A stretch of DNA of 41,085 nucleotides from an uncultured Aminicenantes bacterium (GCA_965195285.1 CBDAFS010000057.1:1-41085), one strand, 5' to 3'. Shown: positions 18,379 to 36,488, counted from the stretch's first letter. The notes: generated from the letters alone by a model not told the origin. Translations and numbers: made by a program.

Positions 18379-21300
18379 TTAGAGATCGCACCGTAGGCAA
18401 CGCTTGGCATCATTGACACAGGATTTTTCAGACAATCCCAGTTCAACCTCATCAAAACCTTTGATTCGCTTCAATGCACTCAAGCAGGGCATCTTATCTC
18501 TCTTCAATTTCTCGAGTTCTTCATCGGGAACCTCAATGGGCTCTATCAGTCTTTTGGGCCGCACCGATCTGAAGTGCCAGGGTATTTTGATACCATTGAA
18601 ATAGCCGTTTATGGCAGCGGCTGCCCGCTGACCGGCAGCAATGGCTTCAATAATGGTTGCAGGTCCGGTAACCGCATCTCCTCCGGCAAAAATTCCCGGG
18701 ATACTGGTTTCCAGGGTATTGGGGTCGACCTCAAAGGTATTCCAGGCCGTGATATCAAAATTCATATCTTTTAACAACTCAGCCAGGTCGGGTTCCTGGC
18801 TGATGGCCGGGATAATGACATCGCAGGAGATAATAAACTCAGAGCCTTCAACCGGAACCGGGCGTCTTCTGCCACTGGCATCGGGTTTCCCCAGTTCAGT
18901 CCGGACACATTCCAAACCGGTCACCCGATTCTTGGCCCCGATAATTCGTTTGGGGGCAACCAAGACATGCAGTTTCACACCTTCTTCCTCAGCCGCATCA
19001 ATTTCTTCTTTAAAAGCCGGCATTTCAAATCTGGATCGACGGTAGGCAATGCTGACCTCCGAGACACCGATTCTAACGGCAGTTCGGGCTGCATCTACCG
19101 CTGAATTACCTCCACCGATCACGATTATTTTATCCCCCGGTTTTTTTCGGTTACCAAAATTCACATTCTGCAGGAAATCAATGCTATCGATAAAACCTTC
19201 ATATTTGTCCTCGCCGTAAACACCGAGTTTTCTACCCTTGAAGGCTCCGACAGCCAAAAATACGACATCATAACCCTGTTTTTTTAATTGATTTATGGTT
19301 ATGTCTTTTCCAATTCGGGTACTGGTTTTTATTTCGATGCCCAGGGCAGCAATGGCATCTATTTCGGCTTTGATCACATTCCGGGGCAGACGATACTCTG
19401 GTATGCCGGCAACCATCATACCACCGGGAATCGGCAGGGCTTCGAAAACCGTTATCGTATAGCCCATTTGTCTTAAATAAAAAGCTGCGGTAAGTCCGGC
19501 CGGCCCGGCTCCGACAATCGCCACCTTCTCGTTTTTTGTAACGGGTAAAGGTTTTATATGTTTTGCTCTTTCCAACTCCAGGTCGGCAACAAATCGCTTT
19601 TGATACATAATGGCAATCGGTTCATCCACCTCTCCCCGGGTGCATTCAAATTCACATGAATGGGTGCAGGCTCGCCCGCAAATCGAGGGGAAGGGATTGT
19701 CTTCGATGATGAGGTCCAGGGCATCCTCGTACCGTTTATGAGCAATCAGCGAGACATAACTGGGAACATCAATACCGGCCGGGCAGGCATTCTGGCAGGG
19801 AGCGGGTGTGAGCCGCTTGCAAACCATGGCCGGGCATCTTTTCTCAATGATATGGGCTTCATACTCTTCCCTGAAATATTTGATGGTGGTCAGAACCGGA
19901 TTCGGGGCCGTCTTGCCCAGTCCGCAAAGGGAAGCATCAATGATGGTATCACTGAGACGTTGCAGGGTGTCAAGGTCCTCCATTTTCCCGTTTCCATCTG
20001 AAATTCTCTCCAATATTTCCAGCATGACCTTGGTTCCGACCCGGCATGGTGTACATTTCCCGCAACTTTCTTCTGCTGTAAAATGCAGAAAAAATTTGGC
20101 GATATCCACCATACAACTGGTCTCATCCATGATCACCATTCCACCGGAACCCATTATGGCCCCGGTCTCATTTATGGAATCATAATCAATGGGAATATCA
20201 AACATTCTTTCAGGAATACAACCACCCGAAGGACCGCCCAACTGGGCAGCTTTTATCTGATTGCCCTGAACGCCGCCGCCACCGATATCATAGATGGCCT
20301 TCCTCAAAGACATACCCATGGGAACCTCAATGAGTCCGGTGTATCGGACTTTTCCGGCCAAGGCAAAGACCTTGGTGCCTTTACTTTTGTCGGTTCCGAT
20401 GGCCGCATAGGCTTCAGGTGAATCCACAATGATTCGAGGAAGATTGGCCAGGGTCTCCACATTGTTGACCACGGTGGGTTTTTTATACAATCCTTTTATG
20501 GGCGGGAAGGGGGGTTTGGGCCTGGGCATGCCTCGCTGATCTTCTATGGAAGCAATCAAAGCGGTTTCTTCACCGCATACGAATGCCCCGGCTCCTTCCC
20601 TGACACTGATATCGAAGGAGAAATCACTGTCCAGAATATTATTGCCCAAAAAATTTTTCTCTCTGGCATCGGCCAGGGCCTTGTCCAGGGTTTTCAGGGC
20701 CAAGGGATATTCGGCCCGACAGTAAATGAAGCCTTCGGTTGCCCCAATGGCATAACCGGCGATAATCATTCCCTCCAGTACCGAGTGGGGATCGCCTTCC
20801 AACAGGGAGCGATCCATGAAGGCTCCCGGATCACCTTCATCGGCATTGCAAATCACATATTTTTTGTCTGATTTGACATTCCGGCAGAAGGTCCATTTTT
20901 TTGCCGTGGGAAAACCAGCACCCCCACGGCCCCGGATACCGGATTTTCCAACCTCTTCAATAACTTCTTCCGGGGTCATCTTCAGTATTTTTATTGTGGC
21001 CTGGTAACCACCGGTTTCCAGGTAATCTTCAATACTGAAAGGATCAATATTTCCGCAATTCTTCAGGGCAATTTTTACCTGATCCTTGACCACACTATAT
21101 TCATCTATGAAGGGTACACCCTCATAGGCCTGCTGTTCCTTACTTTCGGGATGATATTGATACAATACGTTTTCTTTAACAACCTGTCCGTTTTTAACTG
21201 TTTTCTCGACAATGGCAGGAACCGATTCGGGAAGAATATTTCCATAGGTCAGCCGGGTTCTTCCATCCAATTCCAATTCAGCAACAACCTCCTGGGAACA

Positions 21301-21435
21301 CAGTCCGATACATCCAGTTGACCCTATTTTAACAGACAGTTTGCTATTTTCAATTTCAGCCAGGAATGCATTGTAAACATCCATTCCACCTGCCGCTCTT
21401 CCGCAGGTTGCCATTCCGATTTTTATAACAGACAT
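18379..21435 (-). CDS. NuoF/HydB-like FMN-NAD(H) subunit fused to a GltD/NfnB-like FAD-NADP(H) module
   Basis: GRGGAGFPT, NADEGDPGAFMDR, GGPSGG, ESCGKCTPC, EAH-x5-CPAMVC; then PCQNACPAGIDVP, GAGPAG, GGGNSA-x-DAAR, YRR, FAGGD, RCLRC; start ATG 21435 or GTG 21447. Confidence 0.9.
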   Translation of the reverse strand: MSVIKIGMATCGRAAGGMDVYNAFLAEIENSKLSVKIGSTGCIGLCSQEVVAELELDGRTRLTYGNILPESVPAIVEKTVKNGQVVKENVLYQYHPESKEQQAYEGVPFIDEYSVVKDQVKIALKNCGNIDPFSIEDYLETGGYQATIKILKMTPEEVIEEVGKSGIRGRGGAGFPTAKKWTFCRNVKSDKKYVICNADEGDPGAFMDRSLLEGDPHSVLEGMIIAGYAIGATEGFIYCRAEYPLALKTLDKALADAREKNFLGNNILDSDFSFDISVREGAGAFVCGEETALIASIEDQRGMPRPKPPFPPIKGLYKKPTVVNNVETLANLPRIIVDSPEAYAAIGTDKSKGTKVFALAGKVRYTGLIEVPMGMSLRKAIYDIGGGGVQGNQIKAAQLGGPSGGCIPERMFDIPIDYDSINETGAIMGSGGMVIMDETSCMVDIAKFFLHFTAEESCGKCTPCRVGTKVMLEILERISDGNGKMEDLDTLQRLSDTIIDASLCGLGKTAPNPVLTTIKYFREEYEAHIIEKRCPAMVCKRLTPAPCQNACPAGIDVPSYVSLIAHKRYEDALDLIIEDNPFPSICGRACTHSCEFECTRGEVDEPIAIMYQKRFVADLELERAKHIKPLPVTKNEKVAIVGAGPAGLTAAFYLRQMGYTITVFEALPIPGGMMVAGIPEYRLPRNVIKAEIDAIAALGIEIKTSTRIGKDITINQLKKQGYDVVFLAVGAFKGRKLGVYGEDKYEGFIDSIDFLQNVNFGNRKKPGDKIIVIGGGNSAVDAARTAVRIGVSEVSIAYRRSRFEMPAFKEEIDAAEEEGVKLHVLVAPKRIIGAKNRVTGLECVRTELGKPDASGRRRPVPVEGSEFIISCDVIIPAISQEPDLAELLKDMNFDITAWNTFEVDPNTLETSIPGIFAGGDAVTGPATIIEAIAAGQRAAAAINGYFNGIKIPWHFRSVRPKRLIEPIEVPDEELEKLKRDKMPCLSALKRIKGFDEVELGLSEKSCVNDAKRCLRCDL

Positions 21436-21449
21436 TCTTCTAACCACCC

Positions 21450-21959
21450 CTATTTATCTTCATTTTCAGAAGCCTCTCGACAGGACTCGATAACTGCTTT
21501 TACCTGATCAATATCAAGTTTACCGTAAACTTTGTCATTCACCATCATGGCCGGTGCCAGTGCGCAGCAACCGAGACAGGCCACATTCTGGACCGTAAAG
21601 AGCCGATCCTCGGTGGTTTCATTATCCTCATCCAGTTTCAGATAGGATCTGAGCTTCTTGCCCAGAACTTTGGAACCGCCCACATGACAGGCCGTTCCAT
21701 TGCAAGCTTTTATAATATTCTTCCCCACCGGGATAGTGCTGAACTGTGAATAAAAGGTGATGACTCCATAAATATGACTCTCGGCAACATGCATTCTTTC
21801 GGAAAGATACCTAATGGCAAATTCGGGCACATAACCGAATTCAGATTGAATTTTCTGCAAAAGAATCATCAGAGAATTTGCTATAGAATATTTTTTAAAA
21901 ATTTCCCCGACCACTTCCATTTCTTCATTTGACAAGGATACAGTCTCTTGCGTCTGCAT
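21450..21959 (-). CDS. NuoE/HydC-like [2Fe-2S] subunit
   Basis: V-x-TFY, CNGTACH...CLGCC. Confidence 0.92.
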   Translation of the reverse strand: MQTQETVSLSNEEMEVVGEIFKKYSIANSLMILLQKIQSEFGYVPEFAIRYLSERMHVAESHIYGVITFYSQFSTIPVGKNIIKACNGTACHVGGSKVLGKKLRSYLKLDEDNETTEDRLFTVQNVACLGCCALAPAMMVNDKVYGKLDIDQVKAVIESCREASENEDK

Positions 21960-21961
21960 GA

Positions 21962-23968
21962 TTACTCCGCCTCCTTGAACCTCTTTTTGACAAGATCCTG
22001 TAAATCATGGCAATACTCTGCCAGCACTTTTTGATAATCCGTCCTGATAAATCCTGTTGGGGTCTTCACCATATCTTTCCAGACAATCTCTGTTTTCCGG
22101 TTTAATTTCTGACCCTCTTCTTGTAACGAATCATAAGTAATATCCTGGAAACAGGAAAATTTCTTTGCAATTTTCTGCTCCCAGATTTCCCTGCTGGTGG
22201 AGAAATCCCATTTTAAACCCATTCTCTTGGCTAACTCATTGAAAATCCACCCGGATGGTTTGGCTTCTCCCGGGGCATTCACGACCCGGCGGATCAAATT
22301 GATTCGAAAATCAGAACCAACGGTTGTTCCTTCATGTTCCACCCACACCGAGGCCGGTAAAACCAGGTCTGCTTTTTCCTGTGCCACAGAAGGAAAGATA
22401 TCCTGAACCACCAGAAATTCCACTGAATCGGGAAGCGGGCTTTGATGATTCATGGTGTACAATAATTTCAATTTTCCCATATCCAGATCATTCCGGGGCA
22501 ACAAACCCAACAAATAAGCTCCCGCTGTATTGTTTTCTCGGCTTATGGAGAAAATTTTCAGGCCTTCTCTTTGGTTTATTCCGGAGATATCTGTATCCGG
22601 ATCATGAAACAAAAGGGTTTCACCGTTTATTTCCTTTTCTATATCGGCTAGATTTTCCAGCCGGACCCGGGCAAACTTGGACAGTTCGGTATTCTCCATA
22701 TTCACGGTAACCAGTTTGGCACCGTTCAGGACCGCCTGTTTGACAAATGTGGCCGCAACCGGATTATCCCGGGTCATATCCATATTGACGACCACAATAG
22801 TCTGGGCGTTTTTTACATCCTCGTAATCCAGACCCATAAAGGCCGGTGATTCAAAATGAAACACATTATCCCCGGACAGGGCCTCATCAAAAAACTTTTT
22901 TACTTGAAACAGATCTTCATTCTTCTCTTTGGTGGATACCAGACATCCGATCGCTTCGGGACCGTATTTGTCTTTGACTTCATTGATCTTGGCAGCCAGC
23001 CAATCCAGAGCTGCTTCCCAGGTTGTTTCAACCAGTTTCCCCTTCTGCCGGATCATGGGTTTGGTCAGCCGGTCTTCGGAGTGAATAAAATCAAAGGCAA
23101 AACGACCTTTAAAGCACAGTCTGCCTCGATTGGGCAGGCCATCTTCCACACCGTCAACCTTCACGATCTCATTATCCTTTACAAACAGGTCAAGCTGACA
23201 TCCCACCCCGCAATAATGACAGGTAGTCCTGACATGCTTTATATCCCACATCCGGTAATTGAATCGATTCCGCTTTTCAAAGAGGGCACCCACCGGACAA
23301 CTCTGGATACATTCACCGCAATACACACAATCCGAATCAGGCAGGGTGAGGTCCCCCCTGACCACAATCTTGGCAATATTGCCCCGGTAGCCGTGGGACA
23401 GGGCATTGTTCACCTGGATTTCACAGCAGGCCTGGACACATCGACCGCACAGAATACATCGTCCAAAATCCCTACCGATCAGAAGATCATCATACTCGAG
23501 TGGATATTTGGTGGGAATCCGGTCCATTGTTCTCTCAGTTACTCGATATTTATAGGCCAGGGCCTGCAATTCACATTGACCATAAGCCACACAGATATCA
23601 TCCGCCTGGTCATACTCAACCACATCTTTCTGAAAATCCGACCATTCCTGGGGAAAATTCCCCCGGATCGAACAGTTATGATTCCCGGAAATGAGTAAGA
23701 GTTCTATGACCATCTGGCGTGCTTTGACAATTCGGGTCGATTCGGTAAAGATTTCCATACCATCGGCAGCAGGAGAGGAACAGGATGCAATCGGTCCCGG
23801 TGCCCCCTTGACCTCAACAATACAGACCCGGCAGGCTCCGGTGGGGGGGGCCCCCTTTAAATGACAGAGGGTGGGGATATCAATTCCATTTCCCCTGGCC
23901 ACTTCCAGAATGGTTTCCCCGGATTCAAACTCACATTGTTTTCCGTTTATTGTGATTATATTAGCCAT
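21962..23968 (-). CDS. NuoG/FdhA-like Fe-S subunit with truncated molybdopterin-oxidoreductase domain
   Basis: IPTLC...GACRVC [2Fe-2S]; H-x-C...C...C cluster; CILCGRC and CVYCGEC; TTCHYCGVGC...LCFKG; no catalytic Cys/Sec-His segment and no C-terminal MGD-binding domain recognised. Confidence 0.85.
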   Translation of the reverse strand: MANIITINGKQCEFESGETILEVARGNGIDIPTLCHLKGAPPTGACRVCIVEVKGAPGPIASCSSPAADGMEIFTESTRIVKARQMVIELLLISGNHNCSIRGNFPQEWSDFQKDVVEYDQADDICVAYGQCELQALAYKYRVTERTMDRIPTKYPLEYDDLLIGRDFGRCILCGRCVQACCEIQVNNALSHGYRGNIAKIVVRGDLTLPDSDCVYCGECIQSCPVGALFEKRNRFNYRMWDIKHVRTTCHYCGVGCQLDLFVKDNEIVKVDGVEDGLPNRGRLCFKGRFAFDFIHSEDRLTKPMIRQKGKLVETTWEAALDWLAAKINEVKDKYGPEAIGCLVSTKEKNEDLFQVKKFFDEALSGDNVFHFESPAFMGLDYEDVKNAQTIVVVNMDMTRDNPVAATFVKQAVLNGAKLVTVNMENTELSKFARVRLENLADIEKEINGETLLFHDPDTDISGINQREGLKIFSISRENNTAGAYLLGLLPRNDLDMGKLKLLYTMNHQSPLPDSVEFLVVQDIFPSVAQEKADLVLPASVWVEHEGTTVGSDFRINLIRRVVNAPGEAKPSGWIFNELAKRMGLKWDFSTSREIWEQKIAKKFSCFQDITYDSLQEEGQKLNRKTEIVWKDMVKTPTGFIRTDYQKVLAEYCHDLQDLVKKRFKEAE

Positions 23969-23991: not shown

Positions 23992-26001
23992 TTAGTAAGC
24001 GGAAATCTCCTCTTTATTGACTTCGTCCAATTCTTTCTTGTAACAAATCAAACCACAATTCAAGCAGCGGTTGGCCTGATATCTGGCCTCAGCCTCATCC
24101 ACAGTGATCCGGTTATCAATAATTCCCCGGGAAGCCATCAAATCCTTTTTATCCACAATTTCAAATATATTCTGCAGTTCGTTTTCATCAACAATTATAC
24201 CCGCATCAGGAGATATCTCCTCACCGGAGACGTATTGTTGAATGGCCTTGGCCATTTTCCTGCCTCTTCCCACTGCCACCACTACGCCGGCAAGATCAGT
24301 AGGTCTTCCGGTTTTGGCAATGGTAAATATTCCCACCTGTGATTCCCGGGGAAGTACCTTGAATATATCCACGGTCTTCCATTGGGTTGCCTTTGTTTTT
24401 TCAATCAACATTTCCGGATAACGACCCGAACTGACAATCAGGTTGTCCAGGCTCAACTTCTGGATCTTATCATTCGCAACCCTCAGGGATAATGACTTTA
24501 ATTGATCCCCGTTGCCTTCCAACTCGACCGGAGTGGCTGAAAAAATGTATTTTACTTTTTTTGACTCGTTTAATTCAATGTTTCGGAATTCCGTCTCTTG
24601 CTTGGTAAAAGGAAGCACAACCGTCACCTGATCGGCACCGTTTTCCAGACAGACATCCGCTGCCATGGATGAAGTACTGCCTCCGCCGATGATCAGAACC
24701 TTCTTTTTCAAATCGATCTTTATATTTTTTGAAGCGGCAATTAACAGGTCAAGCAATAAATATGATCCGGGAATTATATTCTCTCCCCAGATGTTATCTC
24801 TAAGTATCTGACGGCTGTCCCAACCACCGGTGGTCATCAGGACCATATCGGTTCCCGAGGAAAACATGGATCCCAGGCTGAAATCTTTTCCCATGGTTTT
24901 CCCGGTTTCTGCTTCGATTCCGGTTTCCAGAATACTGTCAATCTCCCAGTCCAGGACATTCCGGGGTAATCGATCCTCGGTAATCACATATCTAAGAATT
25001 CCACCCAAACGGTCAGTAGCTTCCATGATTTTGGGGGCATGGCCCAGTCTCCTCAGATAATAAGCTGCGGTTAATCCCTCAACCCCGCCACCCACAACTA
25101 TAATGTTTTTTCCCTTGGCCGGTGGCAGATATTCGGGTAAAATCCTCTGACCCGAAGCCATCTCATACTGGGAAACAAATTTTTTCAAGGCATTGATTCC
25201 CACCGGTTCATCGATCAGGTTCCGCCGGCATTCAAACTCACAGGGGGCCGGGCATATCCATCCGCAAATCAAGGGGAATGGGTTTTTTTCCTTTATGACC
25301 CTTACGGCTTCAAGATAATTGCCTGCGGAAATCTGCCGGATATATTCGGGAATATCGATCTCAGCCGGGCAATTTCTCTGACAGGGCGCTGTACATTCGC
25401 TGATTTTCTGATCGGATTTGATTCTCCGGGTAGCCGATGAAAGGGTAATGATGTCCTTGGGACAAACTTCAACGCAAACTCCGCAACCCGTACAACGGTC
25501 CAGATTGACAACCGGCAGGTTGTTTTCACCCATGGAAAGTGCATTGAAGGGACAGGAAACCACGCATGTTCCCAGGCCCAGACAGCCGATGTGGCATTCC
25601 TTGCTACCTCCGTAAAGCAGCATGGCAGCCCGACAATCAAAAACCCCGTCATAAGTAAATTTTAAATCCGCATCCTGATAGCCGTAATAACATCCCGGCC
25701 TGGCAAAATCCGGTTCTTTCTGTTCCACTTTCTTACCCATAACCGCCGCTACCTGATGGGCAATTTCAAAACCTCCGGCCGTACAAACATCCAACTCTGC
25801 TTTGTTTTTGACTACGGCTTCGGCAGCGGCAGCACAACCGGCATATCCGCATCCGCCACAATTGGCTCCCAGAAGAGCTTCCTCCACCTGCTCGATACGG
25901 GGATCCTCCCATACGTATAATATTTTAGAGGCAATGGCTAACATTATGGAAGCCATCAATCCCAAACCCAGTAGCATTAGAAACGAATTCAAAATGATCA
26001 T
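23992..26001 (-). CDS. rnfB: RnfB fused to a GltD/NfnB-like domain
   Basis: N-terminal TM, GANCGGCGYAGC, GCLGLGTC, CTGCGVC; then APCQRNCPAEIDIP, NPFP-x-ICG, GGGVEGLTAA, RCLNCG. Confidence 0.9.
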   Translation of the reverse strand: MIILNSFLMLLGLGLMASIMLAIASKILYVWEDPRIEQVEEALLGANCGGCGYAGCAAAAEAVVKNKAELDVCTAGGFEIAHQVAAVMGKKVEQKEPDFARPGCYYGYQDADLKFTYDGVFDCRAAMLLYGGSKECHIGCLGLGTCVVSCPFNALSMGENNLPVVNLDRCTGCGVCVEVCPKDIITLSSATRRIKSDQKISECTAPCQRNCPAEIDIPEYIRQISAGNYLEAVRVIKEKNPFPLICGWICPAPCEFECRRNLIDEPVGINALKKFVSQYEMASGQRILPEYLPPAKGKNIIVVGGGVEGLTAAYYLRRLGHAPKIMEATDRLGGILRYVITEDRLPRNVLDWEIDSILETGIEAETGKTMGKDFSLGSMFSSGTDMVLMTTGGWDSRQILRDNIWGENIIPGSYLLLDLLIAASKNIKIDLKKKVLIIGGGSTSSMAADVCLENGADQVTVVLPFTKQETEFRNIELNESKKVKYIFSATPVELEGNGDQLKSLSLRVANDKIQKLSLDNLIVSSGRYPEMLIEKTKATQWKTVDIFKVLPRESQVGIFTIAKTGRPTDLAGVVVAVGRGRKMAKAIQQYVSGEEISPDAGIIVDENELQNIFEIVDKKDLMASRGIIDNRITVDEAEARYQANRCLNCGLICYKKELDEVNKEEISAY

Positions 26002-26014
26002 GATCTTCTCTCTG

Positions 26015-26614
26015 TCATTTCATCATATACGCCTGAAGCGAATTATCAATCCCCAAAAATCCGTAAAAGGCCAGGGCCATCAGGCCTGCCATTACCAGGG
26101 CAATGGCCGTATCCTGAAGGGCTCGCGGAATAAAGGATATCTCAAACCTTCCCCGGATCCCGGCAAAAAGAATCAAAGCCAGCGTAAATCCGGCCCCTGA
26201 AAATAGTGCATAAAAAAGACTCTGCAAAAAATTAAATTCATTATTGATGCAAAGGACCGCCACACCCAGAATGGCGCAATTGGTGGTGATGAGGGGCAGA
26301 AAAATCCCCAATGCCTTATACAGGGCAGGAGCCAGTTTTTTCAGGAACATTTCGATCAGCTGAACCAGGGCTGCAATCACCAGAATAAAGACAACGGTCT
26401 GGAGATATTCAATCTGCAGGATTACCAGGATATAATGATACACAAACCAGGTGATACTGGTGGCAAAGGTCATAACGAAAATCACGGCCATGCCCATTCC
26501 GGTGGCGGTTTCCATTTTTTTGGAAACCCCCATAAAGGGACAATTCCCCAAATACTGGGCCAGAAGAATGTTTTTTACCAAAATAGCATTGATGGCCAGG
26601 ATAATATATTCCAT
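26015..26614 (-). CDS. rnfA: Rnf complex subunit A
   Basis: YLGNCPF, LGIFLPLITTNCAILG. Confidence 0.95.
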   Translation of the reverse strand: MEYIILAINAILVKNILLAQYLGNCPFMGVSKKMETATGMGMAVIFVMTFATSITWFVYHYILVILQIEYLQTVVFILVIAALVQLIEMFLKKLAPALYKALGIFLPLITTNCAILGVAVLCINNEFNFLQSLFYALFSGAGFTLALILFAGIRGRFEISFIPRALQDTAIALVMAGLMALAFYGFLGIDNSLQAYMMK

Positions 26615-26626
26615 TTAAAACTCCAT

Positions 26627-27220
26627 TTATTTTTTGGGAAATAAATTCATGATACCCAGAATCAGCCCCAGGCAAATAAATGCCCCGGGTGCACTCACCA
26701 TAAAAGCAAAGGGTTCAAATGAATCCCACATCACCTGCATTCCCAAAAATGTACCCTTGCCCAGAATTTCCCGGATTGAGCTGATCAGTATCAGGGAGAG
26801 GGTAAAACCCAGCCCGATTCCCAGTCCATCAGCAGCAGAGAGATAAATCGGATTTTTGGAGGCAAAGGCCTCGGCCCGTCCCAGGATAATACAATTCACC
26901 ACAATCAGATTTATAAACAAACCGAGCTGCTGGGAAATTGAAAAAAAGTAAGCCTTCATCACCAGCTCAACAATCACCACAAAAGTGGCAATCACAACAA
27001 TATAAGAAGCAATCCTGACTTTCTTGGGGATCAGGTTTTTTATGGAAGATATGATGACATTTGAGAAAAACAGAACAAAGGTGGTGCTCAGACCCATCCC
27101 GATCCCATTTTCCACAGCCGTGGTCACGGCCAGGATCGGACACAATCCCAGAACCAGTTTAAAGGGGGGAAGTATTTCCCAGAATCCTTTTAAAAATTCC
27201 TGTGAAATCGTTTTATTCAT
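26627..27220 (-). CDS. rnfE: Rnf complex subunit E
   Basis: LGLCP, LIVVNCIILGRAEAFA. Confidence 0.95.
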   Translation of the reverse strand: MNKTISQEFLKGFWEILPPFKLVLGLCPILAVTTAVENGIGMGLSTTFVLFFSNVIISSIKNLIPKKVRIASYIVVIATFVVIVELVMKAYFFSISQQLGLFINLIVVNCIILGRAEAFASKNPIYLSAADGLGIGLGFTLSLILISSIREILGKGTFLGMQVMWDSFEPFAFMVSAPGAFICLGLILGIMNLFPKK

Positions 27221-27816
27221 TGATCAATCGTCCTATCCCTACTATTTTTTCCCAGTACTTTGTCTTTGATGATGGCATACAAAACAATGCTTTTTTCCAC
27301 GGCTGAACATACGGCTCTGGAGGATATGGTGGCTCCGGAAACCGCATCGATTATGCCGTCATCCTGTTTGACCTTGAAGACTTCATTGATGGCCCTGCCT
27401 TTGAAATTATCCGTAAAGACAGCCTCGGAGACCCGGGCGCCCAATCCGGGTGTTTCCTGATGGGTCAGTATACCGATACCGGAAATCATATTCTGGCTCA
27501 GATCAAAACCCACCATCACCCCGATTTTACCTTTATAACCCATTCCCATGGTTTCAAAGGCAATTGCCCATGGTTGGCCATTCTTCCTGCCAATGAAAAC
27601 AACTTTCTGCTCTCCGTCAATCGTGATCTGCTCCCGCTCACCAATAATATCATTGGTAGATGAAGCCAGAACCTTTTTAAGGGCCGGTCCCTGAACGTTC
27701 AATAGAATTTGCTCTTCGATCCGCTTTTCCGTTCCCTTTTTTACCGCTGCCAGCAGCAGGCCACAGAGGGCTGCAATAATGGTCAAAACCGCCACCATCC
27801 GGATATATTCTTTCAT
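27217..27816 (-). CDS. rnfG: Rnf complex subunit G
   Basis: N-terminal TM, ETPGLG, FMN-attachment motif DAVSGATISS. Confidence 0.95.
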   Translation of the reverse strand: MKEYIRMVAVLTIIAALCGLLLAAVKKGTEKRIEEQILLNVQGPALKKVLASSTNDIIGEREQITIDGEQKVVFIGRKNGQPWAIAFETMGMGYKGKIGVMVGFDLSQNMISGIGILTHQETPGLGARVSEAVFTDNFKGRAINEVFKVKQDDGIIDAVSGATISSRAVCSAVEKSIVLYAIIKDKVLGKNSRDRTIDQ

Positions 27817-28784
27817 GTCATCCTTTTATCGATATAATAAATTTCTGTTGGTCGGGGTCTTTTCTTGATATTATCCAGCAGGGGGGTAAACAGACTCATA
27901 ATCAATATGGCAAAGAAGACCCCATCCGGATAAATGCTCCATATTCGTAAAACCATGGTTAAAAAACCACAGCCGAAACCGAAGATGATCATTCCCCACT
28001 TATTGAAGGGAGAACTGGCAGAGTCAGTGGACAGGAAAAATATTCCCAGCATGAGGTTCCCGGTTAGAAGGTGGAAAAGCGGGTTGGCGAATTGATGGCT
28101 GTTTATCAACCAAAAAAGTGCAGCTACCGATAAAACACCTGCTGCAAAAGACAGGGGGATTTCCCAGGTTATAATCCCTCTAATCAATAGATAAATGCCA
28201 CCAATTAACAGGAACAGTATGGCAATACTTCCGATTCCACCCACCTGTTTGCCCATGAGAAGATCGATGAGCTTAATATCGGAAATAAATTCCACCCCCC
28301 CCTTTTTCAATAAGATCAAGGGGTAACGGAAGCTGAATCCCAGATCATAATTCACCGAAGCCAGATCCAGATTATAATAAGCCGGCCAGGAAATACGGGT
28401 AATGGCCCAGCCAACCAAAACCGGATTCAGCGGACTGCTGCCCAGGCCACCGAAAATCTCCTTTCCGATAAAAATACACAGAAAAGCACCGATAATGACC
28501 AGCCAGTAGGGAACACTCGGGGGAAGAATCATGGCAAAAACCAGACCGATCAGTACAGCGCTCCCATCAAAAATGGTAGTGGATTTCTTGAACATCTTTC
28601 GAATGATCAGTTCACTCAAAACCGCGGTAACCACAGCCAGAGAAATGACCCGGGCCGCATGAAATCCAAAGGTATAAATCGCATACAACAAAGCCGGAAG
28701 CAGGGCAATGATCAGCTGGGCATTAATGTTGGCCACACTGATATTTTTATGCCAATGGGGGGGGCTGGAAACAACTAGGTTCAT
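27813..28784 (-). CDS. rnfD: Rnf complex subunit D (atypical, FMN-threonine motif missing)
   Basis: SSPPH, K-x-x-FGGLG, NP, TD-x3-SP, YPDGV; RYPL where (S/T)GATPL is expected. Confidence 0.9.
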   Translation of the reverse strand: MNLVVSSPPHWHKNISVANINAQLIIALLPALLYAIYTFGFHAARVISLAVVTAVLSELIIRKMFKKSTTIFDGSAVLIGLVFAMILPPSVPYWLVIIGAFLCIFIGKEIFGGLGSSPLNPVLVGWAITRISWPAYYNLDLASVNYDLGFSFRYPLILLKKGGVEFISDIKLIDLLMGKQVGGIGSIAILFLLIGGIYLLIRGIITWEIPLSFAAGVLSVAALFWLINSHQFANPLFHLLTGNLMLGIFFLSTDSASSPFNKWGMIIFGFGCGFLTMVLRIWSIYPDGVFFAILIMSLFTPLLDNIKKRPRPTEIYYIDKRMT

Positions 28785-29974
28785 GATTCCGTTTCTCCCT
28801 GGATTTTTTTCAGTTCACTTTTCGCCAGCTTAATGAATTGAACCAGAGAGCGGCCCGATGGGCAATAATAGGCACACAAGCCGCACTCGATACAATCAAA
28901 CACATCCAGTTCCTGGCATTTTTCAAACAATGAAAACTCGGAAAATCTGCATATGAGGTTTACATCCAGTTTTACCGGGCATACCCGAACACATTTTCCG
29001 CAATTGATACAGGGTTTATTTTCATTCAATACGACTTCGCTCGAATCCTGAATATAGATTAAATCAATGTCATCCCCGACAGGAATAATCGTGTGATATC
29101 CGGAATAACCCCGGAAAGGACCTCCGAGAATCAGTTTATCATTGGTATCAATTCCGGTTTTCTGGCAGATATCTTTGACCAGGGTTCCCATTCTGACCCG
29201 GATATTTTTTTTCTGGTTTTTTTCCACAACGGTGACCACTTTATGAACAAATGGTTTTCCCTCCTTCAGGGCAACCACAGCGGCAGTCAACTTTTCCACA
29301 TTCATGAAACCGCATTTTGCCACTTGGCCGGTGCGGCAAATATCCGATATCAGGATCTCGGGCAGTCCGTTCGGATATCGGGGTTTTACCGGAAAAACTT
29401 CCGCCACATCCCCGGGGATTTCGGTTCCCAGGTTAGACAGATTCTGGGGAATGGCGAAAATGACTTTCCGGGCCGAAGTCAAATATTTGATTAAACGTAA
29501 ACCCTCAAGGGTCAGATATTTATTTTCTCTCCAAATTTGCTGCTGGACCAGACTCAGTGGGTCCTGCTCAACAGCACTGATTATCATAGTTTCCAGAGGT
29601 TCCAGGTTATCTCTGAAACCCAGGTTTGCCCGATTCAGGCATTTTAAGATTTCAGCGGGATCTTTTTTTAAAAAATCCGGTTCTGCTTTTATTTCAAGAT
29701 CCAGTTGTTCCTTTTCATCCAGCTCGACCCTGAGTGCTGAAAATTCTTCATCCCTCATCATCAAAGGATCGATACTTTTTATGGTACCGGTAACCGTGGA
29801 ATATAATCCCGGTAAAATCTCATAACCGGTTTTCAGGTGATCCCCCACCCTGAGATTCAATTGAGCCTGATTGGAATCGAAACCTATCAGGGGGATAAGG
29901 ACCTCGGTGGGATCCGGGGCATCGATGATAGCTATATCTTCTTGGCTTAACGTCAGGTGATCATTTGTTTTCAT
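28781..29974 (-). CDS. rnfC: Rnf complex subunit C (atypical, NADH/FMN motifs missing)
   Basis: Position in operon; S-x-V-x-G, YP-x-G, GGPF-x-G, CINCGKCVRVCP, CIECGLCAYYCP; no GGAGFP or ECEP. Confidence 0.85.
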   Translation of the reverse strand: MKTNDHLTLSQEDIAIIDAPDPTEVLIPLIGFDSNQAQLNLRVGDHLKTGYEILPGLYSTVTGTIKSIDPLMMRDEEFSALRVELDEKEQLDLEIKAEPDFLKKDPAEILKCLNRANLGFRDNLEPLETMIISAVEQDPLSLVQQQIWRENKYLTLEGLRLIKYLTSARKVIFAIPQNLSNLGTEIPGDVAEVFPVKPRYPNGLPEILISDICRTGQVAKCGFMNVEKLTAAVVALKEGKPFVHKVVTVVEKNQKKNIRVRMGTLVKDICQKTGIDTNDKLILGGPFRGYSGYHTIIPVGDDIDLIYIQDSSEVVLNENKPCINCGKCVRVCPVKLDVNLICRFSEFSLFEKCQELDVFDCIECGLCAYYCPSGRSLVQFIKLAKSELKKIQGETES

Positions 29975-29979
29975 CAGTT

Positions 29980-30672
29980 TTACTCTTCTTCATGACACAG
30001 GGTACAATCGTCGACCCCATCGCTATGACACTCGATACAATTCTTGCCAATACATCTCATATGGGTATCGGCGTCCTCACAAATTTGAGTATATTTTGTA
30101 TTGTAATGACATCGCCGGCAATTCATGGGAAAGACTCCTTGCCTTTTCCTTTGATAACCATGGTGACAGGTTTGGCACTCGATATCATATTCATCCGGGG
30201 AGGCATGGGAAAAATGGTTGAAAACAACCGGTCCGCCATCGGTCTCAAAGGTGATCTCTTTGGGCTCGGCAATGGTTTCGAAATGATCGGCATTATGGCA
30301 GAACTCGCAACCGACCGAACCCTGGATATGGCAATCCAGGCAGTTCTTGCCAATACATTTCTTGTGAATGGCCTCATCCTCACACATCCCAATATGATCT
30401 TTGCGGTAATGACAATCCCGGCAATTCATTTGATCGGAGTCCTGGTCACCGGATTTATAATTGTGATGACACTCCTGGCAGGTCATATCCTTGAGTGAGG
30501 TATGATATAGATGGTCGAAAACAACTCCCCCCCCCTTGGTGTCAAAGGCCACCCTCAGAGGTTCCCTCTGCTTTTCAAAAACAAATCCCCAGAGGGCCAG
30601 AATTACAAGAATCAGAATAACCGTTCCGAAAACAATCTCTTTTCTTTTGGTTAAAACTTTAACTTTATCCAT
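29980..30672 (-). CDS. Membrane-anchored octaheme cytochrome c (tandem c3-type domains)
   Basis: N-terminal TM; CQECH, CRDCH, CLDCH, CEFCH, CQTCH, CRRCH, CIECH, CTLCH; two VVF-x-H-x-x-H motifs. Confidence 0.92.
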   Translation of the reverse strand: MDKVKVLTKRKEIVFGTVILILVILALWGFVFEKQREPLRVAFDTKGGGVVFDHLYHTSLKDMTCQECHHNYKSGDQDSDQMNCRDCHYRKDHIGMCEDEAIHKKCIGKNCLDCHIQGSVGCEFCHNADHFETIAEPKEITFETDGGPVVFNHFSHASPDEYDIECQTCHHGYQRKRQGVFPMNCRRCHYNTKYTQICEDADTHMRCIGKNCIECHSDGVDDCTLCHEEE

Positions 30673-30745: not shown

Positions 30746-30775
30746 ATAGTAACATAAAAAATTTTCGGATGTCAA
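30746..30775 (-). promoter_or_regulatory. Sigma70-type promoter of the cytochrome-rnf operon
   Basis: TTGACA-18 nt-TACTAT with TGn extension on minus strand. Confidence 0.5.
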
Positions 30776-30815: not shown

Positions 30816-31202
30816 TTATTCTTTCAGCAATCCTTTTATGGTGGCAATCAAATCATCGGGATCAATCGGTTTTTCCATGAATTTTTCGACTGGCAGGAAA
30901 TCGCCGTCTTCTTCAAGGTTAAATTTAAATTTGGTCATCTGATTCACCGCAGTTGCCAGTATGATCGGAATATGCTTGAATTTTTCATTCAATTTTACAG
31001 ACTGGGCAAAATTGAAACCGTCACTGTCCTTTTCCATCATGACATCCAGAATAATCAGATCAATTTTTTCACTTTCCAAAATCTCTCCCGCAACGTTGAT
31101 ATTTGTTGCCTGAATCACATCATAATTACTGTGTTCCAAAATAATCTTTCGGGCTTCCAATACATCGATATCATCATCGACATCTAATATTTTCTTCTTC
31201 AT
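30816..31202 (-). CDS. Single-domain (CheY-like) response regulator
   Basis: VDDD, LDVMM phospho-Asp, conserved Thr, KP; no output domain. Confidence 0.92.
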   Translation of the reverse strand: MKKKILDVDDDIDVLEARKIILEHSNYDVIQATNINVAGEILESEKIDLIILDVMMEKDSDGFNFAQSVKLNEKFKHIPIILATAVNQMTKFKFNLEEDGDFLPVEKFMEKPIDPDDLIATIKGLLKE

Positions 31203-31210
31203 GATTCCTC

Positions 31211-31909
31211 CTAATTCATTAAAGGTAGTTTTATGGTTAATGTTGTTCCCACATCCACGGTACTATCCACATCAATGGACCCTTCATGGTCCTTGATGAT
31301 CTGCTTGACCAGGGAAAGTCCCAGGCCGATACTGCCATCGATATTTCTCCTGGCCTCTTTGCCCCGGGAGAACATAGTAAATACACTGTCAACATCCTCC
31401 GGAGGTATTCCGATTCCGGTATCACTGATCTCCACCACGATCAGTCTGCCGAATTTTTCAAAACATCGGATATCAATCCGGCCATTTTCCTTATTGTATT
31501 TAACCGCATTCATAATGACATTATTAAAGGCCCTCAACAGGAAGGTATAATTCCCGAAAACATACTTTTCCCGGCAGGACTCCTGCAAATAGTTGATCGA
31601 AATCTTGTTTTGACGGGCATAGGGGTTAATAATCGAATAAGATTCATCAATAATCTCAATCAGGTTTATCCGTTCCCGCTTCATCTGGGATTTATTCTCC
31701 AGAAGCGTATAATCCAGGATATCCTCAACAATTCTGATGAGCCCTTCCGATTTCTTCCTGGCTCTGGAGATGAGTTCCTTTACTTTTACCGGGTCATCTA
31801 CATATCCCTTTTCCACTACATTCAGCAAATCAACCACGGCAGACAGGGGGGCTTTCAAATCATGGGCAATAACCGCCAGATTCTTAATATTTTCCTCTAT
31901 TTTTGACAT
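31211..31909 (-). CDS. Soluble histidine kinase with only HisKA and HATPase domains
   Basis: AHDLKAPL with His at residue 16, NAVKY, DTGIGI, GLGL, GT; no TM or sensor domain. Confidence 0.9.
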   Translation of the reverse strand: MSKIEENIKNLAVIAHDLKAPLSAVVDLLNVVEKGYVDDPVKVKELISRARKKSEGLIRIVEDILDYTLLENKSQMKRERINLIEIIDESYSIINPYARQNKISINYLQESCREKYVFGNYTFLLRAFNNVIMNAVKYNKENGRIDIRCFEKFGRLIVVEISDTGIGIPPEDVDSVFTMFSRGKEARRNIDGSIGLGLSLVKQIIKDHEGSIDVDSTVDVGTTLTIKLPLMN

Positions 31910-31952: not shown

Positions 31953-32432
31953 TTATCCTTTGTCAATATCCAGCATGACTTCATCATAGACCTGTTTAAC
32001 CAGGGATGGCAATGTCTGTTCCACAACCGGGCTCAATTTATCTGACATGGTAATTTCATCGGGCTGGATACAGTAAATCACCACATCAGGATTTCCCTTC
32101 TGTCTGATCCTGGGAGCGATATCCAGAAAATCAATTAAATCAAACTCATGTAATGAATAACCCTTGGTTTCCTTTAAACTATTCACCTCGTCCCGATGAA
32201 ATCTCCGAAATTCTCCGGGCTGAATGCCGCAATTGCCTGCATCAATGAATATTATTTTTTCCCTCTCATCGAATTGATGAAGAAGATTCATCCCGCAGGT
32301 ACCGGCCTCTATCAGGTCAATTTCTTTTCCCATCAATTTTTCTCCCAGTATCCGTGTGGCATGAAGACCTGCCCCCTCATCTGCCAGGAGCGTGTTACCC
32401 AGGCCTATAACCGCAGTTTTATGTCTTTTCAT
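31953..32432 (-). CDS. Hydrogenase maturation protease
   Basis: GLGN-x-L-x-x-DEG-x-G, IDA, SLH. Confidence 0.93.
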   Translation of the reverse strand: MKRHKTAVIGLGNTLLADEGAGLHATRILGEKLMGKEIDLIEAGTCGMNLLHQFDEREKIIFIDAGNCGIQPGEFRRFHRDEVNSLKETKGYSLHEFDLIDFLDIAPRIRQKGNPDVVIYCIQPDEITMSDKLSPVVEQTLPSLVKQVYDEVMLDIDKG

Positions 32433-32435
32433 ATA

Positions 32436-33740
32436 TTATTTTTTAAATTCCACATTTAAAAAGTGGGTAGAACAGGATATACATGGATCATAGGCCCGGA
32501 CCAGCATTTCCAGGTTGAACTGCAAATCCTTCTCTGGAAGGCTCAGCATCTCGGGCACCATCTTCTCAAAATCCATCTGAATATTGTTGTGATTCAAATT
32601 GGTGGGAATCACACAATTGGCTGCCACACAAATACCGTCATCATTATAGGAGTAATCATGAAACAGAATACCCCGGGGAACTTCAACAGCCCCGACTCCC
32701 CGGCCATTTTTTACCTTGATATCAGGCTTCTCCAATTTTAATTCCTGGCCTAACAACCATTCAATATGACTGATTGACCGCTCCACGGCAAAGACACATT
32801 CTACCACCTGAGCCGCATTGTTCTGGTATGGACTGATATTGATACCAGGCTTCAAACCCAGCATTTCGGCAACCTGTTGACTCAAAGGGGTCAACTGACT
32901 ATAGTTGTTGTTGTAGCGGGCCAGGGCGCCCACCATGAATGAGGCCCGGTTAAACTTTCCATACTTGGCTGTGGATTGGGGTACCACAAACTCATTCACT
33001 ACCCCCTTGTATTCATCAGGGGATATGTTTTTATCAATATCTGTAGTGGTAACCTGACCCTCATAAAAAGCATATTCCTTGTCGTATGTCAACGATAGGT
33101 ACTCGGTCTCCCGGTTGAAGTCAGGGAATCCATTGGAAACCGATTTGAAAATCTCGGCCAGTTTCATCAGGTCTCCTTTGGCCTCTTCCAGCCGCTTCTT
33201 CAACTCTTCCAATTCTTGCCGGGTGGGCAACATGGTGAAATGTCCCACTTTGGCCCTGATGGGATGGGTGGTCCGACCACCGATCACATCACACATTTCA
33301 TTGGATAACCGGTGTAACTTGGTCACCAGCAGCACCGCATCCGGGTGACTCGCAACCAGAGGAATGACACTGTTGACCTTGAACAGATCGGGCAGTACCA
33401 GATAACAAACATGCAAAATGTGACTTTGAAGTGTTTCTCCGTGAAGCAACAATTCACGCAATACCCGGGTTTGTTCGGAGATCTTTACTTCCAGAGCAGT
33501 CTCGGTTGCTTTCAAACTGGCAAAAGTATGACCGATCGAGCATATACCGCATATCCTTGAGGTGATGGTGGCCAGTTCAGAATACGACCTTCCCACAACC
33601 ATGGTCTCAAAAAATCGCGGCGCCTCTGGCACCTGCCACTCAAGCTTTTCTATATTTCCATCTTTAACATCCACCACAATATTACCGTGACCTTCCACAC
33701 GGGTCAGATGCCTGACATTTATCTTGACTTCTTTACTCAT
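32436..33740 (-). CDS. hydA: Group 3b [NiFe]-hydrogenase large (alpha) subunit
   Basis: RVEGHG, L1 SRICGIC, EVPRG, L2 DPCISCSTH plus cleavable tail FLNVEFKK. Confidence 0.95.
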   Translation of the reverse strand: MSKEVKINVRHLTRVEGHGNIVVDVKDGNIEKLEWQVPEAPRFFETMVVGRSYSELATITSRICGICSIGHTFASLKATETALEVKISEQTRVLRELLLHGETLQSHILHVCYLVLPDLFKVNSVIPLVASHPDAVLLVTKLHRLSNEMCDVIGGRTTHPIRAKVGHFTMLPTRQELEELKKRLEEAKGDLMKLAEIFKSVSNGFPDFNRETEYLSLTYDKEYAFYEGQVTTTDIDKNISPDEYKGVVNEFVVPQSTAKYGKFNRASFMVGALARYNNNYSQLTPLSQQVAEMLGLKPGINISPYQNNAAQVVECVFAVERSISHIEWLLGQELKLEKPDIKVKNGRGVGAVEVPRGILFHDYSYNDDGICVAANCVIPTNLNHNNIQMDFEKMVPEMLSLPEKDLQFNLEMLVRAYDPCISCSTHFLNVEFKK

Positions 33741-34492
33741 TTCTTTACCTCCGGATTCACTCCAAATAAATTAATCGCTCGTTTGATCTCTTCAACGGTG
33801 TAATTGTATTTATCCAATATCTCATGCATGGCATTTTTATTGGGGTTATCCACCGTTCCTCTACAGGCTTCGCAGGGTGAACCATTCGAAGGGCAAATCG
33901 CCCCGCAACCCGCCCGGGCCAGTGGCCCCAGGCAAATCACACCTTTGTCAAACAGGCAAATATTTTCTTTTAACTTGCACTCCACACATACCGGATGATT
34001 GGGTAAACGGGGCATTATACCCAGGCTCAATTCTTTAACCATTCGTAAGAACTCATCCCGGTTAATTGGACACCCGGGAATATATAAGTCCACCTTTACC
34101 ACTTCATCGACACCTTTGGTGGGATAGGTGTCCAGATGAGGCATGTGGGAATCATCACCGTACACACACTTCTTGACATCATCCATGCTGTGCCAGACAT
34201 TCTTTAACCTGTTGATCCCGCCGTTAACCGCACACTGTCCATAAGCCACCAACAACGTGGAGCGTTCCCTTATATCCTTTAAGCGTTCCTCGTCTGATTT
34301 GCGGGTTATTGATCCTTCTATAAACGCTATATCATAAGTTTCTGATGTACTGCCTGTCATCACTTCCCTGAATTCTACCAAATCGACCAGATCCAACAAC
34401 TTGATGATATCTTCCTCCAAATTCGCCACCTGCAACTGACATCCTTCGCAACAGGCAAAATCAAAAAATGCTACCTTCGGCTTATTACTCAT
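33737..34492 (-). CDS. hydD: Group 3b hydrogenase small (delta) subunit
   Basis: CCEGC, EGS, GQCA, PGCP, VCVEC, CLG, CGAICP, CEACRG. Confidence 0.93.
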   Translation of the reverse strand: MSNKPKVAFFDFACCEGCQLQVANLEEDIIKLLDLVDLVEFREVMTGSTSETYDIAFIEGSITRKSDEERLKDIRERSTLLVAYGQCAVNGGINRLKNVWHSMDDVKKCVYGDDSHMPHLDTYPTKGVDEVVKVDLYIPGCPINRDEFLRMVKELSLGIMPRLPNHPVCVECKLKENICLFDKGVICLGPLARAGCGAICPSNGSPCEACRGTVDNPNKNAMHEILDKYNYTVEEIKRAINLFGVNPEVKK

Positions 34493-34493
34493 C

Positions 34494-35417: not shown

Positions 35418-35427
35418 GATTTCCTCC

Positions 35428-36450: not shown

Positions 36451-36488
36451 GATTTGTCTCCTATAAAACGACACACAATAAGAATATT

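Follow-up and report, generated by a model that had tools for sequence, protein, structure and literature searches.

The locus described here raises the question of how electrons could pass through an Rnf complex in which both RnfC and RnfD have lost their flavin-binding motifs. It is located at positions 23,992-30,672 of a 41,085-nt stretch of DNA from an uncultured Aminicenantes bacterium (GCA_965195285.1 CBDAFS010000057.1:1-41085), and this whole stretch is called the window below. In the canonical complex, as outlined in passages of PMC9588780, electrons move from ferredoxin through the RnfB clusters, the RnfA/E iron center, the flavin mononucleotide (FMN) of RnfG, the FMN of RnfD, riboflavin, the RnfC clusters and the RnfC FMN to NAD+. 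An earlier note on the window proposed that the branch returning through RnfD and RnfC is disabled or repurposed, and that the complex forms a transmembrane conduit between periplasmic hemes and cytoplasmic partners of RnfB. The present analysis partly supports this interpretation. Judged from its genes, the operon is a member of the already described Rnf2, or Desulfobacula toluolica Tol2-type, of Rnf, and not a new kind of system.

The RnfC protein of the window was compared pairwise with the solved chains 7zc6_C, 9eri_C and 8ahx_C, and with 31 canonical RnfC sequences. Where canonical chains have vG(l/m)GGAxFPTHVKL it has a 13-residue deletion, and the sequence SAVEQDP is found at the position of the canonical NGAECEP/NAAECEP, which bears out the claim of the earlier note that G-x-GGAGFP and ECEP are missing. 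In a MAFFT alignment of RnfC from the 40 loci found with the RnfD of the window, G(L/M)GGAxFP(T/S/A) and ECE(P/S) are present in 31 loci, and the deletion and SAV(E/D)xxP are common to the window and its five close relatives (L001-L005); of the remaining rows, that of an unrelated Bacillota locus (L027) has degenerated on its own, and another locus lacks coverage in this region. The scores of the window RnfC with TIGR01945 (185.9 bits) and Complex1_51K (29.6) are below the respective cut-offs of 245.95 and 31.2, and the domain search found no SLBB domain in this protein. On the other hand, both CxxCxxCxxxC motifs are retained. When 31 canonical rows were aligned with 30 Rnf2-type rows, 25 canonically conserved positions were kept, including all eight cluster cysteines, while 30 were gone, nearly all of them in the N-terminal and the flavin/nicotinamide part. 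The model of the window RnfC predicted by AlphaFold2 (pLDDT 89.6) matched best the fold of RnfC chains (TMq 0.83-0.86), and then that of NqrA (0.70-0.73). The features by which canonical RnfC is recognized as binding FMN and NADH, namely GGAxFP, ECEP and the TIGR01945 profile, are absent from the window protein.

The same states are widespread among RnfC homologs. A protein search with the window RnfC gave 1125 proteins at E <= 1e-10, and among the best 120, which were examined, none has GGAxFP or ECEP, while 119 have both CxxCxxCxxxC motifs, the exception being a 244-aa fragment. The source names among these 120 include Aminicenantes, Spirochaetota, Planctomycetota, Desulfobacterales and Syntrophales. 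A locus search with a 20-row RnfC alignment yielded at least 596 stretches, and the best 80, which were retained, are mostly from Desulfobacterales, Desulfosarcina, Desulfatiglandales and Syntrophales. Together with the five close relatives of the window, the retained loci make up a set of 84, all with RnfC devoid of the FMN motif, and both Fe-S motifs of RnfC are present in 84 of the 84.

The loss in RnfD is equally clear-cut. The window RnfD has FRYPL in place of (T/G)ATPL, which puts Tyr154 at the position of the FMN-bearing threonine, and GGIGSIA, with Ser186, in place of G.(I/L)GE(T/V)S, in agreement with what the earlier note had read for this subunit. The motifs of the window and its five close relatives are (R/H)(Y/S)PL and G(S/T/A), whereas (T/S)P(L) or (T/S)(L/V)L after alanine is found in 32 of 33 other loci, and GE likewise in 32 of 33. 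A column comparison was made between 33 canonical and 47 Rnf2-type RnfD sequences, with half of the 80 retained, Desulfobacterota-rich loci omitted for size; the residue numbering of C. tetanomorphum was mapped by hand from an alignment. Motif calls by regular expression gave some false states (e.g., L020, L037 and L117), and the counts were taken from the alignments instead. The FMN-threonine column contains 28 Thr and 5 Ser in canonical sequences, but 36 Tyr, 4 Ser, 3 Asp and 2 Ala in the Rnf2-type, and the aspartate of the flavinylation motif, present in the former, is deleted in 45 of 47 of the latter. Glu185 and Arg130, which flank the isoalloxazine according to passages of PMC9588780, are each invariant in the canonical set (33/33) and each absent from the Rnf2-type (0/47). 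The replacements in the pocket are Arg to Ile, Trp, Leu or Val, Glu to Ser or Ala, and Thr to Tyr. By contrast, of the two residues to which the same passages assign roles in binding Na+ and riboflavin, Asp248 (Asp in 33/33 canonical rows) is acidic in all 47 Rnf2-type rows, and Asn124 (33/33) is conserved in 41 of 47. The covalent attachment of FMN to Thr or Ser of D..(S/T)xA(T/S), which defines canonical RnfD, is thus not predicted for the window protein. No statement of this flavin-site loss was found in the literature searched, outside which lay the supplements and the original 2016 description of Rnf2, either of which may report it. The earlier suggestion that the D/C branch is disabled is supported by the absence of the pocket Glu and Arg from 47 of 47 RnfD rows, but it is too strong, as the eight RnfC cysteines and the RnfD Asp/Asn core are conserved.

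The cofactor sites of RnfG and RnfA/E are kept, and a cytochrome gene heads the operon. RnfG has the SGAT motif and scores 229.4 bits with NF045876 RnfG_DVU2794 (cut-off 205). The sequence contexts (G.CP and NC.ILG) of Cys27 and Cys110 in RnfE and of Cys25 and Cys113 in RnfA match those of the canonical copies of this genome. As the earlier note had observed, the FMN-threonine of RnfG and the cysteine pairs of RnfA and RnfE are intact, and the single ApbE encoded in the genome is in keeping with this retained part of the path. The open reading frame (ORF) directly upstream of rnfC indeed encodes an octaheme cytochrome, with eight CxxCH motifs across two similar halves, a hydrophobic N-terminal membrane anchor, and PF02085 detected in two stretches; all of its heme motifs are invariant among 12 relatives. 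A complex prediction for RnfG (residues 30-199) and the cytochrome (38-230), using 12-row alignments of each, had a score of 0.00, which counts neither for nor against their contact. Of the 77 Rnf2-type loci whose upstream sequence extends for 700 bp or more, 76 have a multiheme ORF (two or more CxxCH) just upstream, with 3 (11 loci), 4 (37), 5 (14), 6 (1), 7 (2) or 8 (11) heme motifs. The eleven loci with eight motifs comprise all eight of the Aminicenantes clade (L001-L005, L044, L045, L047), as well as L051, L052 and L085. The genome of the window encodes eleven further ORFs with 2-15 CxxCH motifs (15, 8, 8, 7, 6, 6, 4, 4, 4, 4 and 2; e.g., C46 4364-5566, C49 13989-15107, C39 119724-122048 and C34 28557-29447), so that periplasmic partners exist. 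The Aminicenantes group is usually described as fermentative, and this set of multiheme cytochromes is sizeable for such a member.

The RnfB protein is extended, as the earlier note had noticed, and the extension has a recognizable identity. In this 669-aa fusion the RnfB part covers residues 1 to about 195, followed by Fer4_20 (198-283) and Pyr_redox_2 (299-533), with PF04060 and Fer4 also detected. The nearest solved relatives of residues 174-654 are the NADP-side subunits NfnA (9n5u_A, 2.2e-66), 9bov_A and StnA (8oh5_C). The last ferredoxin-like domain of canonical RnfB, FdIII, is placed at residues 215-268 in passages of PMC9588780, while the window protein aligns to solved RnfB only as far as about residue 195, and a GltD/NfnA-like flavoprotein thus stands in place of FdIII. 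An RnfB of this size is the rule in the family: 47 of 49 complete ORFs are at least 660 aa long and the two shorter ones look split; together with the counts for the cytochrome, this is the co-occurrence with the losses for which the earlier note had asked. At one locus (L114) the large rnfB precedes the cytochrome gene.

Within the family, the GltD-like part varies in its second dinucleotide fold. The usual form of this fold, GGGN.A.D ... YRR...EMPA, is seen in T. sibiricus NfnA and in the 1022-aa protein encoded in the window itself, while the window RnfB has at this NADPH-type motif the degenerate GGGSTSS ... LPFTKQETEF. YRR..EMPA is intact in 30 of 47 Rnf2 RnfB proteins and degenerate in 17, including every member of the Aminicenantes clade. 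A NuoG-like gene follows rnfB in seven of the seven Aminicenantes-clade loci with downstream sequence, and all loci with a NuoG/E/F-like module directly 3' of rnfB (those of the window, L001-L003, L005, L045, L047, L049 and L052) have the degenerate motif, whereas the 30 loci with an intact motif are without such a module there. Since these loci are close kin, the co-occurrence is described as a pattern, without a statistical test. In the window, the genes at 18379-23968 contain the full StnABC/NfnABC domain set with GltD on the NuoF-like subunit, although no NCBIfam cut-off was reached. The intact motifs suggest sites for both NADH and NADPH on this NuoF-GltD protein. Two more NuoE/F-like sets are present in the genome, at C9 11438-17519 and C55 4682-7683.

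The primary Rnf2 paper is reportedly that of Woehlbrand et al. 2016. Passages of PMC5109826 (Doerries et al. 2016) describe the "D. toluolica Tol2-type" of Rnf as Rnf2 in Desulfobacteraceae, in which RnfB is large and NAD-binding, RnfC is devoid of NADH and SLBB domains, and the gene cluster includes a cytochrome, and state that its different mode of action "awaits experimental verification." According to excerpts of PMC11887813, Rnf2 belongs to the Desulfobacteraceae core genome, and both papers report its subunits as abundant and constitutive in proteomes. The operon of the window shares these features, i.e., the large RnfB with a dinucleotide domain, RnfC without 51K and SLBB, and the cytochrome gene in the cluster, as well as common descent by its RnfD clade and RnfG family. 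Hence, the remark in the earlier note that the type is "not wholly new" was right in substance but understated, as the type had been described (PMC5109826, in the passages on Rnf2). As to the cytochrome-associated variants that it names in Methanosarcina and sulfate reducers, the Methanosarcinales loci and the one Desulfovibrionaceae locus examined keep all motifs, so that the presence of a cytochrome alone does not go with the losses. In the Aminicenantes literature, the mention of Rnf in the relevant passage of PMC4897734 refers to another organism.

In a maximum-likelihood tree of 82 RnfD/NqrB rows, obtained by a quick search with no bootstrap, all 47 Rnf2-type sequences, including those of Desulfosarcina widdelii and the window, are on one side of a branch with SH-aLRT support of 100 and a length of 0.71, which points to a single lineage of Rnf2-type RnfD that branched off from Rnf. 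Within it, the rows from Aminicenantes group as a subclade (99) beside rows from Planctomycetota, Spirochaetota and Myxococcota metagenome-assembled genomes (MAGs), apart from the bulk of Desulfobacterota. The RnfG proteins of the window, Desulfosarcina widdelii and D. cetonica pass the NF045876 cut-off, while the canonical RnfG of the same genomes fail it. RnfG of this family was found in two of 301 sampled genomes of the phylum of the window, which were its own genome and one of nine others in its family, so that the presence of Rnf2 in the phylum is patchy. None of 33 genomes in the family of the genome carrying locus L014, apparently a different, small-genome group, passed this cut-off. 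A Bacillota MAG (L027:1704-5603) has RnfC-like and RnfD-like proteins with an independent loss of GGAxFP, Thr and GE, on a long branch outside the Rnf2 clade; no RnfG was found at this locus, and only weak RnfE/A-like ORFs are downstream.

The assembly (3.28 Mb in 62 contigs, 94.9% complete) contains three RnfD/NqrB homologs. A canonical rnfCDGEAB on contig C55 (101875-106839) has GMGGAAFP, ECEP, TTATPL, GET and a 272-aa RnfB, and a full nqrA-F on contig C9 (46071-53035) is followed by the only apbE of the genome. Because canonical Rnf and NqrA-F are also present, the window operon is a specialized third paralog. The ratios of nonsynonymous to synonymous substitution rates (dN/dS) between the window and L001, whose proteins are 95-99% identical, are 0.19 for rnfC, 0.16 for rnfD and 0.04-0.17 for the other five genes. 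These ratios argue that the operon is under purifying selection, and since they are low and the Rnf2-type states of RnfC and RnfD recur in all five close relatives, the losses are not a matter of chance or decay. No RNA datasets were listed as containing the stretch itself. In one cold-seep study, three RNA-library runs contain contigs of 153-341 letters that, at 93-98% likeness, match the cytochrome gene, the rnfC/D junction, rnfG/E, rnfA/B, rnfB and nuoF-gltD; they are from a close relative, the uncovered parts of the operon carry no meaning, and, as DNA can occur in such libraries, they are at most a weak hint of expression.

The reading that we prefer, and to which we give about an even chance of being correct, is that the Rnf2-type complex would act as a reversible, Na+- or H+-coupled NAD(P)H (or Fe-S module):cytochrome c oxidoreductase, with no return of electrons via RnfD and RnfC to NAD+. 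Because the FMN sites of RnfD and RnfC are gone, FdIII is replaced, and the cytochrome is always present, the simplest circuit runs from a flavoprotein/Fe-S module through RnfA/E and RnfG-FMN to the cytochrome. Electrons would enter or leave on the cytoplasmic side at the RnfB-GltD module, and in the lineage of the window they would probably pass also via the co-operonic NuoEFG-GltD (StnABC/NfnABC-like) module. They would then move from the Fe-S clusters of RnfB to the RnfA/E iron center, RnfG-FMN and the periplasmic octaheme cytochrome, while RnfD could serve as an ion path and scaffold. The wiring would be like that of Na+-NQR, with flavoprotein input and a cofactor-poor RnfC/NqrA, but with a cytochrome instead of quinone as output. 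With no FMN on RnfD, the canonical return of electrons could hardly be completed, in line with a conduit between the cytoplasm and periplasmic hemes. The conduit envisaged in the earlier note is thus consistent with the losses, although the partner appears to be a flavoprotein fused to RnfB, with a degenerate NADPH-type motif in this lineage. A related link, in which an rnf-associated cytochrome joins the periplasmic cytochrome pool to cytoplasmic NAD(P)H and ferredoxin, is proposed for Desulfovibrio in passages of PMC4287179. The adjoining genes for an NAD(P)-linked hydrogenase suggest that the locus serves the disposal or supply of nicotinamide-bound electrons.

Several points weigh against this view. 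The conserved cluster cysteines of RnfC and the acidic/Asn core of RnfD are not accounted for by a pure bypass, and the former FMN pocket of RnfD may hold a non-covalent flavin or another cofactor. The degenerate YRR..EMPA makes it doubtful that RnfB of the window lineage binds NAD(P)H. As NAD(P)H and c3-type hemes are presumably close in potential, the driving force for ion pumping would hinge on the downstream partners. Ten Rnf2 loci have no rnfB after rnfA despite at least 2 kb of following sequence, and the next genes are unrelated, often encoding a small Cys-rich protein. No Rnf2 activity, cofactor analysis or structure was found in the literature searched. The rnfB-less loci are from Desulfobacterota (L054, L056, L071, L086, L087, L095, L116, L118, L120 and L121), and the small Cys-rich ORF of about 150-170 aa, next to rnfA in several of them, is on the opposite strand in L054, L071 and L086.

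The survival of the RnfC clusters would fit a closed-loop ferredoxin:NAD(P)+ oxidoreductase, with the nicotinamide site moved from RnfC to the GltD part of RnfB, the Fe-S domain of RnfC exchanging electrons with ferredoxin, and the cytochrome as an accessory. The retention of the [4Fe-4S] motifs throughout the locus set and of the riboflavin/Na+ Asp/Glu and Asn of RnfD agrees with it, as do the firm association of RnfB with RnfC in the solved complex (PMC9588780, in part) and the scheme in passages of PMC11887813, whose authors draw Rnf2 as a link of the NADH and ferredoxin pools. However, the step from RnfG-FMN to riboflavin would have no bridging cofactor, given that passages of PMC9588780 report 7.7 Å between the RnfD FMN and riboflavin and less than 5 Å between RnfG and RnfD. 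The erasure of the whole flavinylation motif across the family also speaks against a closed loop, and a near-obligate cytochrome would be odd for an accessory, so we consider this loop unlikely, while giving it a real chance.

A speculative and rather improbable elaboration concerns the lineage of the window, where Rnf2 and the NuoE, NuoF-GltD and NuoG-like proteins could together make up a single modular machine for respiration that does not depend on quinone. Its soluble part, with intact NADH and NADPH sites, would dock on the FMN-less RnfC or on the degenerate GltD part of RnfB like an N-module in a complex I-like arrangement, and electrons from NADH, NADPH or ferredoxin would be exported, coupled to ion movement, via RnfAE, RnfG and the octaheme cytochrome to other multiheme cytochromes. 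The RnfC clusters would then be a docking wire, which would explain their survival.

We regard as improbable a quinone-linked, NQR-like NAD(P)H:quinone oxidoreductase, in which menaquinone would occupy the former FMN pocket (Tyr/Trp/Ile/Phe) or the riboflavin site of RnfD. The exchange of polar pocket residues for hydrophobic or aromatic ones and the resemblance of the RnfC model to cofactor-less NqrA would suit it, and quinones are presumably present because the genome has Nqr. But that Nqr is already complete, the near-obligate cytochrome would be left without a role, the Fe-S clusters of RnfC are kept, unlike in NqrA, and we know of no quinone-site motif. A decaying or non-functional duplicate, to which the loss of two cofactor sites and the faster evolution of RnfC (39-59% identity, against 75-91% for RnfE/A) might point, was rejected as hardly credible on the dN/dS of rnfC and rnfD, and also because the states are conserved in a clade that spans several phyla, no reading frame is broken, and Rnf2 proteins are detected in Desulfobacteraceae (PMC11887813 and PMC5109826, in part).

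The preferred reading, an ion-coupled link between nicotinamide or Fe-S carriers and periplasmic heme, bears on a wider group of organisms. Desulfobacteraceae contribute greatly to marine carbon and sulfur cycling, and their Rnf2 is abundant and part of the core genome (passages of PMC11887813). The family-wide loss of the RnfD flavin site and the near-obligate cytochrome narrow the options to such a link. The window adds that the Rnf2 type also occurs outside sulfate reducers, that it can be present beside canonical Rnf and Nqr in one genome, and that a variant has its own NuoEFG-like module.

The ten genes of the operon follow one another in the same direction on the minus strand (30672 to 18379), separated by no more than 23 bp, in the order listed in Table 1. 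The promoter-like site upstream is the top-scoring minus-strand consensus match of the region. Genes for a histidine kinase and a response regulator (30816-31909) are located upstream on the same strand, between the rnf2 operon and the hydrogenase genes. The latter (31953-36474 and 38780-40851, minus strand) encode a maturation protease, hypE/hypD-like products and an NAD(P)-linked [NiFe] hydrogenase that has four subunits and is sulfhydrogenase-like (group 3b-like). Elsewhere in the window, a flavodiiron-type protein with metallo-beta-lactamase-like and flavodoxin domains (9745-10923, minus strand) is encoded amid sigma-54 regulators and glycolytic genes. The G+C content is 0.31 at positions 1-2000, compared with 0.41-0.49 in the rest of the window, and an ORF at 214-1398 (minus strand) has a SAM-methyltransferase domain.

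Table 1. Features of the rnf2 operon, in the order of transcription, with positions counted from the first nucleotide of the window
Feature	Positions	Strand	Basis or remark
Promoter-like site, TTGACA-18-TACTAT with TG	30746..30775	-	Consensus match only; within the 143-bp gap that precedes the cytochrome gene
Octaheme c-type cytochrome, membrane-anchored, two tandem tetraheme c3-like domains	29980..30672	-	8 CxxCH; PF02085 Cytochrom_CIII
RnfC, FMN/NADH site missing, both [4Fe-4S] motifs present	28781..29974	-	Alignments, profiles, AlphaFold2 model
RnfD without flavinylation motif: Tyr154 for Thr, Ser186 for Glu, Trp126 for Arg; Asp254 and Asn120 retained	27813..28784	-	Alignments
RnfG, FMN-Thr intact (SGAT, Thr163)	27217..27816	-	NF045876 RnfG_DVU2794, 229.4 bits
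RnfE, Cys27 and Cys110	26627..27220	-	Profiles, alignment to the canonical copy of the genome
RnfA, Cys25 and Cys113	26015..26614	-	Profiles, alignment to the canonical copy of the genome
RnfB (membrane anchor, FdI and FdII parts) fused to GltD/NfnA-like module; two predicted [4Fe-4S], FAD, dinucleotide fold; YRR..EMPA degenerate	23992..26001	-	Domains, PDB matches
NuoG/FdhA-like Fe-S subunit, 668 aa (2Fe-2S, 4Fe-4S, truncated molybdopterin fold)	21962..23968	-	23 bp after rnfB
NuoE-like [2Fe-2S] subunit, 169 aa	21450..21959	-	Domain search
NuoF-like subunit (FMN/NADH, SLBB, 4Fe-4S) fused to GltD-like module, YRR..EMPA intact, 1022 aa	18379..21447	-	Domain search

Compared with known systems, the window operon is closest to the Rnf2/Tol2-type, with which it shares the order cyt-rnfCDGEAB, an RnfB that measures about 700 aa and includes a dinucleotide-binding flavoprotein part, a small multiheme cytochrome, RnfC without NADH/SLBB domains, the RnfD clade and the NCBIfam family of RnfG. 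It differs from the Rnf2 of Desulfobacteraceae in its host, an Aminicenantes/Acidobacteriota MAG, in the degenerate YRR..EMPA of RnfB and in the NuoG/E/F-GltD module in the same operon, and from most Desulfobacterota Rnf2 loci, which have 3-5 hemes, in its tandem octaheme cytochrome. With canonical Rnf (A. woodii 9eri, C. tetanomorphum 7zc6, A. vinelandii 8ahx) it has in common six homologous subunits, the cysteines of RnfA/E, the FMN-threonine of RnfG, the [4Fe-4S] pair of RnfC and, in the predicted model, the overall RnfC fold, whereas the FMN/NADH site of RnfC and the flavinylation motif and pocket Glu/Arg of RnfD are missing, a GltD-like part stands for FdIII, and a cytochrome is added. 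In the Rnf of Methanosarcina with MmcA, a multiheme cytochrome gene also heads rnfCDGEAB and electrons are proposed to exit through the cytochrome, but there RnfB, RnfC, RnfD and RnfG retain every known cofactor site according to passages of bioRxiv 10.1101/2022.07.20.500911, with which four Methanosarcinales loci (L016, L017, L022 and L038) agree, and RnfB has about 265 aa. The likeness to Na+-NQR (V. cholerae 7xk3, 8acy) would lie in the flavoprotein input of NAD(P)H at the RnfB/NqrF position, RnfC/NqrA without a nicotinamide site, and the same membrane core; NqrB, however, keeps covalent FMN, NqrA has no Fe-S clusters, and the output is to quinone with no cytochrome, while the window operon has no NqrF-like gene, its RnfD has no threonine, and its RnfC has two [4Fe-4S] motifs. 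Finally, StnABC/NfnABC (Bfu-type; 8oh5, 9bov, 9n5u) provide the closest solved relatives of the GltD-like part of RnfB, and the same NuoE/F/G-like and GltD set is encoded downstream of it, but here it is the NuoF-like subunit, and not the NuoG/FdhA-like one, to which GltD is fused, and a second copy of GltD is carried by RnfB.

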